Shown: positions 34,651 to 37,596, numbered from the stretch's first letter. The stretch is 64,000 bases of DNA from an uncultured delta proteobacterium (GCA_963775425.1 CAVZJB010000012.1:288001-352000); one strand, 5' to 3'. Notes: generated from the sequence alone by a model not told the origin. Numbers and translations are program-made.

Positions 34651-37596
34651 TCACAGGCCGCCCTCGTCGAGCGCCGTGCGCCGGTCTGCGTGCACGCGCG
34701 CCCGGGTGTGCGGCGCGTCGCCGGGCCAGCGCACGTCGACATCGACGTCGCCGGCGTAGGCGCCGAGGCCGAAGTGCAGCACCGGCGACTCCTGCGCCGA
34801 GAAGCCGCCGAGCAGGTGCACCTCCTGCACCTGTCGCACGACGTCCGCCTCTCGCGGGCGCCCGAGCCACGTGGTGGCTGTGGGCGGCGGGCTCGCCCCC
34901 CGCTCGTACGTGACGGTCACCACCGCGCCGACGCCGCCGGTGTTCTTGCCCGCGCCGCGCAACACGAGGTCGACCCAGTGCGACGACGCGGGCCTGGTCT
35001 GCCGCAGGGTGGAGCGATACAGCGACGCGGGGCCATGTTGGTTGGCGATGATGACGTCGAGATCGCCGTCGCCGTCGAGGTCGGCCAGGAGCACGCCGCG
35101 GGAGTTGTCGGGGTCGGCGATGCCGAGGGCGTCCGCGACGTCGACGAAGTAGCCTGGGGCGTCGTCGCCGAGGTTGAGGTACGCGCGGCGCTTCTCGTTC
35201 GGATAGATCTCACGCCCGCGAAGGTCGCCCCACATGTCCGCGTACGTGTGGATCTCCGGCCCCGACTGCATGAGCTTGTGGTTCACGTACCAGTAGTCCT
35301 TGCGCGCGCCGTCCGGGAGCTTCCACTCGGGCCCGTCGAGGCGGTCGTCGACCATGCCGTTTGCCTGCACGAGGTCTGGCCACCCGTCGTTGTCGAGGTC
35401 GCCTGCCTCGCCGCCCCAGCCGAAGCGGTGCTCGTTGAGCGCGCCGCGCTGCGTGGCCTCGTCGGAGAAGCGCGGCACCGCGATGGGCGCGGCCCCCGGC
35501 ACGATGGACGGCCTGGTGGTCTTTCCCGGCGACACCATCCACAGCATGGAGCCCTCGGCTTGCAGCTCGTGGTGCACGTTGCTGACGGTGACGTCGAGGA
35601 AGCCGTTCCTGTCGAAGTCGGCGACGGTGGCGTTCATGCCCTTGTAGGTGTCGTGGCCGACGTCGTTGAACCAGCGGCCGACGACGGGGACGAAGCGCTT
35701 GCCGTGATCGTTCAGGAGCAGCTCGTCGGGGCCGAAGTCGTTGGCGACGTAGAGGTCGGTCCACCCGTCGTGGTTGAAGTCGCACGTGGCCACCGCGAGC
35801 GACCAGCGCGTGCCTGTGAGGCCGACGTCCGCGCCGCGGAGCTTCTCGAAGTGCCCGGCGCCGTCGTTCAGGAAGAGCTCTTCGCCGCCGCCGTTGTCGG
35901 CGTTGTGCCAGCCGTTGTGCATGAAGTGGAACATGCGGCGGTCGCCCTGGTACTCGGCCTTGGGCAGATCGAAGACGTTGAGCGGCCGCGGCGGCTCGTA
36001 GTCGTTGAGCGTGGGCGAGGTGGCGTTCAACACGAGCATGTCGAGGTCGCCGTCGTTGTCGAAGTCGAAGAACGTGATCGCGAGGGAGATGCTGTGCTCG
36101 TCGAAGCCGCTCTCCGCGGTGACGTCGGTGAAGCCGAGCTTGCCGGTCTCCACGAGGTCGTTGCGCAGCAAGCGCGACCGTCCGAAGCCGAAGGGGACGG
36201 CGAGGTCGAGGTCGCCGTCGCCGTCCCAGTCGGCGAACGTGCCGCCGGAGGGGAGGCCGAAGCGCTTGGGGTCCCCGGCGCGCGCGGCGAGCGCGGGGAT
36301 CGGCACGCGATGAAAGCGCAACGGCCCCGCTTCGGCGCCTCCTCGCGTGTCGGCCGGCCCGCCGCCGGGGACGGTGTCGTTCAAGAACAGCGCGCCGCGG
36401 TCCTCGGCGCGCTTGAGGGGGTTAGAGAAGAACAGGTCGATGTCGCCGTCGTTGTCGACGTCGCCGGCGGCCACTGCGTCGCCGACGGACAGCACCCACT
36501 TGGCGATGTGCTGCACGCGCGGGTCCACCTTTTCGAGCACGGCGGGATCCATGACGGCGCCGAGCCCGGCCTGGTCGACGTCGACGCGCTCCATGGTGAA
36601 CCCCGGGTCGCGCGTGAGGTGCGGCACGGCCAGGTAGGCCACCCCCGCGTAGACCGCGCCGATGGTCAGCGTGGCGCCGAGCGCGCGGAAGCGGCCACCG
36701 TCGAGCTGCGACACGAGCGAGCGCCTCCGGTCGCCGCCGTCGACGACGAGCCGCTCGGCAAAGGCGGCGCGCCCGCTCTTGACGACGGCGATGAGGAAGC
36801 GCCCCGAGGCGACGACGAGCGCGGCGTAGAAGAAGGTGTAGACGCTCTCCTTGGCGTGAAGCACGAGGTCGACGGCGGCGATGAGGAACGCCACCAGCAC
36901 CTGCAGCCGCGGCGCCTTCGGCGACGTCGCCGGATCCGTGATCATGTAGAAGGTGAACAGGTAGAACGGCGGCGTGGTGAGCGTGCCGATGAAGAGCATC
37001 TCGGGCGGCAGGTGGTGCCGCATGATCCACGCGCGGATCCCCGTGTTCATCGCATAGAACACCAGGAAGCTGACGATGAGCGTGCCGCGGCCGATGCGCA
37101 GCACGAACAGCACGAGCGCGGCGGTGACGAGGAAGAACGACAGCGTGATGGACCCGCCCGCCCACTGATACGCCGGCGCCGCGGTGATCATCTCTCCGCC
37201 CACGATGAGCGACATCGCAACGCCGAACATCGACGGGTTGAAGACGTGCTTGCCGTCGACGGTGAGGACGTGCTTGCTCCCGATGGAGAGCAAGACCGGC
37301 AGGAACAGGATGAAGCTGTGCTTGCTGTAGTTGAGGAGGATGGCGAGCGACGCGCAGGTGATCCACGCCGACAGCGGGAACACCAACACCCCCTTGCGCA
37401 CCCACGTGAGCACGATGTCGAGCGCGCAGCCCGACAGCACGATGAACGCCATCTGCCACGGCGTCCGGTTGAAGCCGAAGAAGAACAGGCCGAGGACGCA
37501 GTAGAGCGTGAGCAGCGCCGCGAACGGCCAGCGCGGGTCGCGAGGACCGGGGACGGAGAACGGAGGGAGCTTGGGGGGCGCGGCCGTCGTGCTCAT
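34651..37596 (-). CDS. UnbU-like membrane domain fused to a CRTAC1/ASPIC-UnbV FG-GAP domain (981 aa)
   Basis: N-terminal RDPRWPF, SKH...HVFNPS, APAYQW, FYMITDPATSP; C-terminal DxDxDGD repeats, ANDFGPDEL, DTYKGM, FGWG, YWY, LHFGLG..VRWP. Confidence 0.92.
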   Translation of the reverse strand: MSTTAAPPKLPPFSVPGPRDPRWPFAALLTLYCVLGLFFFGFNRTPWQMAFIVLSGCALDIVLTWVRKGVLVFPLSAWITCASLAILLNYSKHSFILFLPVLLSIGSKHVLTVDGKHVFNPSMFGVAMSLIVGGEMITAAPAYQWAGGSITLSFFLVTAALVLFVLRIGRGTLIVSFLVFYAMNTGIRAWIMRHHLPPEMLFIGTLTTPPFYLFTFYMITDPATSPKAPRLQVLVAFLIAAVDLVLHAKESVYTFFYAALVVASGRFLIAVVKSGRAAFAERLVVDGGDRRRSLVSQLDGGRFRALGATLTIGAVYAGVAYLAVPHLTRDPGFTMERVDVDQAGLGAVMDPAVLEKVDPRVQHIAKWVLSVGDAVAAGDVDNDGDIDLFFSNPLKRAEDRGALFLNDTVPGGGPADTRGGAEAGPLRFHRVPIPALAARAGDPKRFGLPSGGTFADWDGDGDLDLAVPFGFGRSRLLRNDLVETGKLGFTDVTAESGFDEHSISLAITFFDFDNDGDLDMLVLNATSPTLNDYEPPRPLNVFDLPKAEYQGDRRMFHFMHNGWHNADNGGGEELFLNDGAGHFEKLRGADVGLTGTRWSLAVATCDFNHDGWTDLYVANDFGPDELLLNDHGKRFVPVVGRWFNDVGHDTYKGMNATVADFDRNGFLDVTVSNVHHELQAEGSMLWMVSPGKTTRPSIVPGAAPIAVPRFSDEATQRGALNEHRFGWGGEAGDLDNDGWPDLVQANGMVDDRLDGPEWKLPDGARKDYWYVNHKLMQSGPEIHTYADMWGDLRGREIYPNEKRRAYLNLGDDAPGYFVDVADALGIADPDNSRGVLLADLDGDGDLDVIIANQHGPASLYRSTLRQTRPASSHWVDLVLRGAGKNTGGVGAVVTVTYERGASPPPTATTWLGRPREADVVRQVQEVHLLGGFSAQESPVLHFGLGAYAGDVDVDVRWPGDAPHTRARVHADRRTALDEGGL

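Follow-up and report, generated by a model that had tools for sequence, protein, structure and literature searches.

In the 64,000-nucleotide (nt) stretch of an uncultured delta proteobacterium analysed here (GCA_963775425.1 CAVZJB010000012.1:288001-352000, referred to below as the window), one open reading frame (ORF) on the minus strand at 34651..37596 joins an RnfD-like membrane domain (UnbU) to an FG-GAP propeller carrying an ASPIC/UnbV domain (UnbV). Judged by the homology of both halves, this fusion appears to be a single-chain version of the UnbU/UnbV pair, whose counterparts in enediyne biosynthesis are E5 and E4, respectively. We lean, if only slightly, towards the view that both halves belong to a single membrane-to-periplasm unit for a lipid-like chain: the membrane domain would extract or translocate the chain, and the propeller would bind or modify it on the outside.

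A sequence-only reading of the same stretch had described a single 981-residue frame joining the two domains, and the ORF listing, the Pfam scan and the alignment to separate genes for each half all bear this out. The ORF is uninterrupted and starts with ATG, and with a G+C content at third codon positions of 0.95, in a window of 72% G+C, its codon-position G+C pattern is that of a real gene. The Pfam matches of the fusion were FG-GAP_3 (7e-29, 100.6 bits against a cut-off of 26.9), FG-GAP (2e-17) and, at amino acids (aa) 888-973, UnbV_ASPIC (45.5 bits against a cut-off of 23.4). Hydropathy placed about 10 helices within residues 24-272 and an 11th at 306-324, before the propeller; the latter was kept in 42 of 44 aligned homologues (as a 19-aa hydrophobic window of at least 1.4). 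In addition, the mean number of Lys plus Arg residues (K+R) over the 44 homologues summed to 14.5 in the predicted inner loops versus 3.1 in the outer loops. The membrane domain is accordingly drawn in our prediction with both termini inside (N-in, C-in), and with its APAYQW loop and the propeller on the outer face. The extracytoplasmic location that had been proposed for the propeller is thus also what the topology prediction gives, on the strength of the K/R-rich loop, the 11th helix that follows it and the K+R bias across the homologues. Because stand-alone UnbV proteins bear an N-terminal anchor helix, the 11th helix is best regarded as UnbV's own signal anchor, retained in the fusion; such an anchor was found in the window's stand-alone UnbV, in that of a myxobacterial enediyne cassette and, if translation is read from an upstream GTG, in that of Streptomyces. 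The membrane domain holds the invariant polar motifs K108, H117, NPS, APAYQW and TDPxTSP, which are conserved up to E5 and partly in RsxD. Regarding existing models, the ESM Atlas held none of the fusion protein, its feature matches of 0.86-0.88 to RnfD-like and 'UnbU' clusters being leads only, and NCBIfam had no model naming E4, E5 or the fusion.

The same two parts lie in the window a second time, at 6557-9444, as separate genes in the opposite order, as had been noticed from the sequence. There UnbV precedes UnbU, the UnbV stop TGA (8540-8542) overlaps the UnbU start GTG at 8539 (GTGA), and the split UnbV has one N-terminal helix (aa 28-46) after an Arg-rich start. Identity to the split pair was 34% over 254 aa (E = 4e-35) for the N-terminal 270 residues of the fusion, set against UnbU, and 35% over 564 aa (E = 4e-68) for the remainder, set against UnbV; the five motifs said to be common to the two copies, APAYQW, MITDPxTSP, ANDFGPD, D(S/T)(F/Y)KGM and YWY, were all present in each. 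A recent duplication, which had been argued against from the start, is ruled out by this 34-35% identity and by the position of the copies in separate clades, and an origin of the fusion as a read-through of the split pair is ruled out by the opposite gene order. The fusion and the split pair of the window would then be old paralogous lineages.

Both halves also aligned to proteins of a Streptomyces enediyne cassette: the fusion was 27% identical to E5 (L007:11680-12813) over 290 aa (E = 8e-15) and 26% identical to E4 of the same cassette over 637 aa (E = 3e-26), and a profile of the split-UnbU family matched this E5 at 2.7e-34. From these alignments we infer that the two parts are true homologues of E5 (UnbU) and E4 (UnbV). 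When the split UnbU was searched against plasmids by tblastn, 17 Streptomyces plasmids were matched, and all 3 that were inspected held DUF1702 (in one or two copies), a CRTAC1/ASPIC-UnbV gene, a gene annotated 'enediyne biosynthesis protein' or 'RnfD', a type I polyketide synthase (PKS) and a thioesterase, with stops and starts adjacent or overlapping (by 4 nt in one cassette). To our knowledge, E3, E4 and E5 are conserved in every enediyne cluster. Their published order, E10/E/E5/E4/E3 (PMC4480864), is the same as in the Streptomyces plasmids, and a 2023 paper refers to three extra enediyne cassette genes 'of unknown function' (PMC9992847).

True enediyne-type cassettes also occur in the same phylum (Myxococcota), where two loci (L021 and L022, from genomes G049 and G009) carry DUF1702, UnbV, UnbU, a 1941-aa KS-AT-KR-DH synthase and a 4HBT thioesterase on one strand. 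In Cohnella soli (L074:814-8792) three discrete ketosynthase-type genes, a ketoreductase, DUF1702, UnbV and UnbU are co-directional, and in Paenibacillus (L066, L070, L080) DUF1702-UnbV-UnbU likewise comes after discrete ketosynthases and a ketoreductase; in both genera E3/E4/E5 thus accompany a type II-like synthase in place of the enediyne PKS (PKSE). The connection that had been drawn between the fusion and the E4/E5 step therefore holds in part: the homology of both halves stands, but an enediyne context does not, as no PKS, DUF1702 or 4HBT was found among the 36 window ORFs scanned with Pfam, and tblastn found no PKSE or DUF1702 near the fusion in any of 69 fused loci.

Some details of the plasmid-borne genes are recorded here in their own right. 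Translated from the annotated start (L007:9767-9829, NZ_CP108526), the E4 of S. zaomyceticus has no hydrophobic N-terminus; an in-frame GTG 60 nt upstream of it, overlapping the DUF1702 stop, adds a K/R-then-hydrophobic anchor, and for this reason the deposited start is probably too short. The E5 of the same cassette bears an Ala-/Cys-rich C-terminal tail with two copies of CACPAGACACP, absent from the UnbU modules of the window and from myxobacterial E5. On a Metabacillus plasmid (NZ_CP088246, L008:5399-6786), a redoxin-domain gene overlaps the start of a UnbU-like gene annotated RnfD.

The fusion is no unusual experiment of nature: no arrangement is commoner in the family, and many public genomes already contain it under generic names. 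The best 120 relatives among 5.8 billion proteins were all full-length fusions (880-979 aa, 90-100% coverage), from Myxococcus, Corallococcus, Pyxidicoccus, Archangium, Cystobacter, Sandaracinus and one metagenome-assembled genome of Planctomycetota, with database names such as 'FG-GAP-like repeat-containing', 'CRTAC1 family', 'VCBS' and, at JGI, 'enediyne biosynthesis protein E4' and 'RnfD subunit'. Among 401 same-phylum genomes, a sample dominated by one family (172/400), 143 matched the fusion at E <= 1e-10, and at least 86 gave a single stop-free match over both domains (from about residues 11-20 to 959-981), with a second copy in at least 2 of these. In a cross-phylum set made up of the best 80 loci of 558 UnbU relatives (profile scan, one genome per species), 59 loci were fused U then V and none V then U; 9 had the genes adjacent as V then U, 5 had adjacent or overlapping frames as U then V, which may be frameshifts, and 1 had UnbV nearby. 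These 80 loci span Acidobacteriota, Pseudomonadota (Neisseria shayeganii, Comamonas, Massilia, Pleionea), Bdellovibrionota, Verrucomicrobiota, Gemmatimonadota, Bacillota, Actinomycetota, Chloroflexota and others, and include complete chromosomes. The sequence-only reading had made its case depend on the fusion being found in other genomes, and the same single frame was indeed found in both collections. We found no paper on the fusion or on its link to lipid or polyene clusters in a search that left subscription journals and the 2003 papers naming UnbU/UnbV outside.

A search with the split UnbU alone through 1.84 billion cluster representatives gave 1695 relatives (E <= 1e-3); of the best 150, 23 were 860-950 aa long. 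The 27 long representatives scanned with Pfam were mostly U-FG-GAP(-UnbV_ASPIC). At least 27 pairs of UnbU and UnbV matches were on contigs of equal size. Other proteins join the UnbU module to FG-GAP with an AurF-type diiron domain, to TPR repeats, to CarboxypepD_reg with RHS repeats or, at its upstream side, to BNR (P0376, P0402, P0437 and P0445), and others again to DUF2330. A third UnbU-like module of the present genome (contig 16, L001:9433-11628) is of the last kind, a 731-aa frame fused to DUF2330; a second DUF2330 gene comes after it (L001:11216-12961), and P0497 is a similar U-DUF2330 protein. The genome's third UnbV_ASPIC protein (contig 2, L002:7026-9221) is a 731-aa frame with no adjoining UnbU and falls in the second fused clade of the V tree. 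P0293-P0303 are FG-GAP/UnbV_ASPIC proteins of about 1120-1155 aa, roughly double the length of the split UnbV, to which they are 33-37% identical.

Of the 199 sequences in the U-domain tree (FastTree, with RsxD as outgroup), 63 made up the main fused clade (support 1.0), 45 of them being long or known fusions; this clade was sister (0.979) to a clade of split pairs like that of the window (0.999). E5 formed a clade of its own (1.0), and a second fused clade (1.0) lay elsewhere. The V-domain tree gave the same groups (main fused, second fused, split and E4), so that the comparison with enediyne E4/E5 suggested beforehand as a check returned separate clades for these proteins in both trees. Because the second fused clade stands apart from the main one, the U-then-V fusion would have arisen at least twice. 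With E5/E4 homology, fusion or adjacency of the two parts in 73 of the best 80 loci, and domain trees holding the same groups, the Rosetta-stone argument linking UnbU and UnbV appears sound, and stronger than first claimed.

The membrane half was compared with RnfD/NqrB at several levels. The split UnbU scored 35.1 bits against Pfam PF03116 (cut-off 27.7) and 22.7 bits against the curated rnfD model TIGR01946 (cut-off 207); the N-terminus of the fusion did not match PF03116 at E <= 0.01 in the whole-protein scan, and reached 32.2 bits against 27.7 only with pieces summed in the six-frame search. Aligned by hhalign to Escherichia coli RsxD, the UnbU alignment gave a probability of 94.8% (E = 5e-8, 196 columns). 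The RsxD loop of about 75 residues bearing GISQAT was unmatched in this comparison and had no counterpart in 12 aligned UnbU-like sequences (the fusion, the split UnbU, E5 and 9 others); its position is occupied by the invariant APAYQW. We take this loop to be the periplasmic flavin-attachment site, whose threonine carries covalent flavin mononucleotide (FMN) and whose consensus is (S/T)GAT. No other Rnf or Nqr subunit was present among the window ORFs scanned with Pfam, and the six-frame search of the genome found no bona fide RnfD/NqrB, the sole PF03116 matches being the three UnbU-like modules. Against the PDB, the membrane half gave by sequence only chance matches (deferrochelatase, E = 0.28), and the full-length fusion profile matched no RnfD or NqrB chain. 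The membrane domain is thus predicted to have the RnfD/NqrB fold and, as far as its sequence and surroundings go, to be no Rnf/Nqr subunit; with the FMN loop gone, it is unlikely to serve a flavin role of the RnfD type.

Regarding the propeller half, its nearest solved structures were human CRTAC1 (PDB 9etn: E = 7e-12 by sequence, 2e-20 by profile) and integrins; the function of CRTAC1 is not transferable to it. NGG, DFG, KGM, E681, W727 and R833 were common to fused, split, E4 and other CRTAC1-like proteins, so these motifs would mark the core of the family, and possibly a pocket, not an interface with UnbU. The proposal that KGM and YWY mark the interface was ruled out on this basis: KGM, like DFG, is generic to CRTAC1-like propellers and for that reason not an interface marker, and YWY is missing in E4.

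Neighbouring genes were clustered for 10 myxobacterial fusion loci and the 80 cross-phylum loci. The most frequent neighbours in the latter were a GH3 gene preceded by a small GNAT-like ORF (30 loci), a Rieske/VanA_C oxygenase (28) and k3, a protein of about 390 aa with a weak GNAT match (26), followed by k4 of about 200 aa (11), three clusters of fatty-acid desaturases (9, 9 and 6) and PAP2 (6). Among the 59 fused loci, GH3 was found in 29, Rieske in 26 and k3 in 24, any of the three in 34 and all three in 19, and a desaturase in 18. Counterparts of GH3, the small GNAT-like ORF, Rieske, k3 and k4 are also present around the fusion of the window (Table 1), whereas desaturases and PAP2 are its partners in other genomes, and the neighbourhood looks like an amino-lipid cluster; a link of the UnbU-UnbV family to GH3-type lipid clusters is thereby newly visible. 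As background, OlsH, a GH3-like enzyme of bacteria, is reported to use ATP to join a fatty acid to ornithine, which gives N-acyl ornithine (PMC12493201).

The split pair has a different set of neighbours (Table 1), and in a genome of another family (G149, L020:1328-8049) the ketosynthase-iron enzyme and the desaturase again adjoin a split pair, co-directionally; in the same genome a weak DUF455/AurF-like gene lies upstream of UnbV. Linkage to biosynthetic genes is thus seen in three contexts, with PKSE cassettes, with ketosynthase/iron-oxidase genes and with the GH3 set, and by their domain content the partners in every context would make or tailor long hydrophobic chains.

Table 1. Positions of the fusion, its parts, the split pair and the neighbouring genes in the window
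Feature	Position	Strand	Evidence
UnbU-UnbV fusion ORF, 981 aa	34651..37596	-	ORF listing; Pfam; 120/120 best database relatives 880-979 aa, 90-100% coverage
UnbU-like membrane domain, aa 1-272, about 10 helices, predicted RnfD/NqrB fold without FMN loop	36781..37596	-	split UnbU 34%, Streptomyces E5 27%; hydropathy; RsxD alignment and hhalign
K/R-rich loop, aa 273-305, predicted cytoplasmic	36682..36780	-	8 K+R here; mean 5.64 K+R (44 homologues)
Linker membrane helix, aa 306-324, putative counterpart of UnbV signal anchor	36625..36681	-	hydrophobic 19-aa window in homologues; split UnbV helix
FG-GAP propeller and ASPIC/UnbV domain, aa 325-981, predicted extracytoplasmic	34654..36624	-	Pfam; CRTAC1 9etn; split UnbV 35%, Streptomyces E4 26%
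Separate UnbV-like gene, 661 aa, N-terminal anchor helix	6557..8542	+	ORF, Pfam, hydropathy
Separate UnbU-like gene, 301 aa, GTG start overlapping UnbV stop	8539..9444	+	ORF, Pfam, hydropathy
FA_hydroxylase beside split pair	9503-10540	-	Pfam
KAS III fused to heme-oxygenase-like iron enzyme, beside split pair	10377-12401	+	Pfam
DUF6999 beside split pair	12340-13473	+	Pfam
FA_desaturase beside split pair	13340-14383	+	Pfam
Rieske/VanA_C oxygenase, 11 kb away	22374..23645	-	Pfam; 61-64% identity to Rieske genes of Myxococcus loci
GH3-family acyl-acid amido synthetase	30060..31961 (ORF limits, start not fixed)	-	GH3 1.2e-16, GH3_M 1.4e-12, GH3_C 3.2e-6; 45% identity to L012 GH3; six-frame match
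Small GNAT-like partner c4	31775..32455	-	tblastn 48% identity to gene after fusion in L012; L012 copy weak Acetyltransf_1
Conserved small partner k4, about 215 aa	32437..33084	-	matches k4 cluster; no Pfam match
IS110-family element, transposase 33305-34612	33143..34660	+	Pfam DEDD_Tnp_IS110 and Transposase_20; genomic copies
Divergent neighbour k3, 446 aa	37508..38848	+	39% identity, E 2e-62 to k3 cluster; no Pfam match; relatives weak GNAT

The 3' end of the fusion gene is overlapped by an insertion sequence (IS) of the IS110 family, which occurs in the genome as 4 full copies, 99-100% identical, and once in partial form. These copies match the window up to about 34658-34661, beyond the stop codon of the fusion at 34651-34653, so that the last 2-3 codons and the stop of the ORF lie within the element. 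Homologues of the fusion run 3-25 residues further at the C-terminus, and the ASPIC domain is intact here; the native tail has been replaced, and the stop codon is supplied by the IS110 element. The same element separates the fusion gene from the downstream k4, the GNAT-like gene and GH3.

If the two halves do act as one unit, the membrane domain would take a hydrophobic chain from the inner membrane and present or translocate it to the propeller, which would bind it, modify it or pass it on outside the cytoplasm. What the fusion handles in this genome would most likely be a product of the GH3 enzyme, either an N-acyl amino acid or an amino lipid. Split pairs would have the same task with other hydrophobic chains, for instance the PKSE polyene in enediyne cassettes, and for the split pair of the window the chain would be the product of the adjoining ketosynthase, iron-oxidase and desaturase genes.

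A number of observations weigh against this proposal. We know of no substrate or activity for any member of the UnbU or UnbV family. The local copy of the fusion may be poorly coupled to its cluster because the IS110 element cuts the gene off from its downstream partners, and 25 of the 59 fused loci have none of GH3, Rieske and k3 within 8 kb. The two parts are not always together, since UnbU had no UnbV near it in 6 of the 80 loci and there are solitary UnbV-like proteins too, one of them on contig 2 of this genome, and the conserved propeller motifs appear as well in CRTAC1-like proteins of uncertain partner status. The varied outer domains joined to UnbU would fit a generic anchor or scaffold as well as a lipid handler. 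On the side of method, 'fused' in the genome counts means that both profiles match the same stop-free frame and is not a curated gene call, and both domain trees were made with FastTree only, with sister relations that differ between U and V. Finally, the available part of the OlsH paper makes no mention of an FG-GAP, UnbU/UnbV, RnfD, Rieske or desaturase partner (PMC12493201).

Other explanations have to be set beside the chain-handling unit. The membrane domain might belong to a transmembrane redox module, in which an RnfD/NqrB-like domain would carry electrons, or a cofactor, through the membrane for a propeller enzyme that oxidises or reduces on the outside; the membrane-bound enzyme complex of the sequence-only reading would be of this kind. 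Such a module would suit the RnfD-related fold (the hhalign result against RsxD, and PF03116 matches to the split UnbU and many of its relatives), the frequent oxygenase and desaturase neighbours, the redoxin-domain gene paired with the UnbU-like gene of the Metabacillus plasmid and the AurF-type diiron domain that one relative carries after its propeller. However, the flavin loop is missing in 12 of 12 aligned UnbU-like sequences, the split UnbU falls far below the rnfD cut-off, the window has no other Rnf/Nqr subunit and the genome no bona fide RnfD, and neither half of the fusion showed a haem, Fe-S or flavin motif; we hold this account to be unlikely. A further alternative makes the membrane domain an anchor only, that is, a scaffold for assorted surface domains, with the propeller as a calcium-binding adhesion or matrix protein apart from the chemistry of its neighbours. 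FG-GAP/CRTAC1 propellers are classically adhesion or matrix proteins, human CRTAC1 and integrins are the nearest solved structures, the UnbU module has a number of unrelated extracytoplasmic fusion partners, and the 25 fused loci without the GH3/Rieske/k3 set can be counted on the same side. But the fusion retains UnbV's own anchor helix, and a ten-helix domain would therefore be unneeded for anchoring; moreover, the invariant polar motifs of the membrane domain are conserved as far as E5, and partly RsxD, and biosynthetic linkage recurs in three contexts. An anchor without further function thus seems improbable to us.

There is also the question of whether the single ORF is real, as a frameshift or mis-assembly of two genes, or a chimera made by the nearby IS element, could have produced it. 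The IS110 element does overlap the last codons, and in a search of public sequencing runs with 36300-37000 the best contained 0.06 of the sampled words, with no RNA run among the matches listed. On the other hand, the element reaches no further than the very 3' end, a long way from the domain junction (near 36625-36780), and the same U-then-V frame with its linker helix was seen in at least 86 of the 401 phylum genomes, 59 of the 80 loci and 120 of the 120 best relatives. Because the same single frame is conserved in other genomes, an assembly artefact is excluded for practical purposes, and the probability that we leave to it is negligible.

Extended beyond this locus, the preferred reading, namely one unit that handles a lipid-like chain, would make UnbU plus UnbV, fused or split, a widespread and unrecognised two-part machine that draws long acyl or polyene chains from the cytoplasmic membrane and processes them outside. 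We regard this generalisation as rather doubtful, and offer it tentatively for what would follow. If it were true, the E4/E5 step of enediyne biosynthesis would be located at the membrane or outside it instead of in the cytoplasm, and myxobacteria, Bdellovibrio, acidobacteria, Neisseria shayeganii and Paenibacillus would use this machine in their pathways for amino lipids and phenolic lipids; its chemistry could then be worked out in easy, non-toxic lipid systems and transferred to enediynes. E3/E4/E5 are a main obstacle to understanding enediyne core formation, and we know of no reconstitution of the E4/E5 step; failed cytoplasmic reconstitutions may have missed a membrane step. E5 and E4 would on the present evidence belong to a much larger family, usually one protein, with the propeller facing outward and a membrane half without the flavin loop. 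Since lipid or polyene clusters of three or more kinds contain members of this family, cheap experiments should be possible in Myxococcus xanthus and other tractable, harmless carriers. In the databases the fusion itself is nothing unusual, nor is it enediyne-linked here; its value lies in the light that it may shed on E4/E5 and in the link to GH3-type lipid clusters.

Among known systems, RnfD/NqrB, represented by RsxD, has the residues K110, H119, N122, P123 and D289-P290-x-T292 (RsxD numbering, 13-sequence alignment) in common with the membrane half and differs from it in the flavin loop discussed above. CRTAC1/ASPIC proteins likewise consist of an FG-GAP propeller of the calcium type and a C-terminal ASPIC/UnbV domain, and the fusion differs in that a bacterial propeller is covalently joined to a ten-helix membrane domain. 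In the OlsH/OlsI ornithine-lipid pathway of Singulisphaera acidiphila, as far as the available part of its description goes (PMC12493201), a GH3 ATP-dependent acyl-amido synthetase is at work, as is likewise encoded in the gene set of the fusion; in contrast to OlsH/OlsI/OlsG, no OlsI-type alpha/beta hydrolase or OlsG methyltransferase was present among the window ORFs scanned, and GNAT-like genes are found instead. The closest parallel to the pair itself is the enediyne cassette, for instance that of the S. zaomyceticus plasmid NZ_CP108526 (DUF1702-CRTAC1-E5-PKSE-thioesterase), with which the fusion has the motifs K...H..NPS, AP.Y, YMITDP.T, DFG and KGM in common. In enediyne cassettes the pair is likewise always linked and UnbV has an N-terminal anchor, whereas E5/E4 lack YWY, H195, D243 and H247, residues invariant in the fused family, and are encoded by separate genes, V then U, and not by one polypeptide, U then V, as here.

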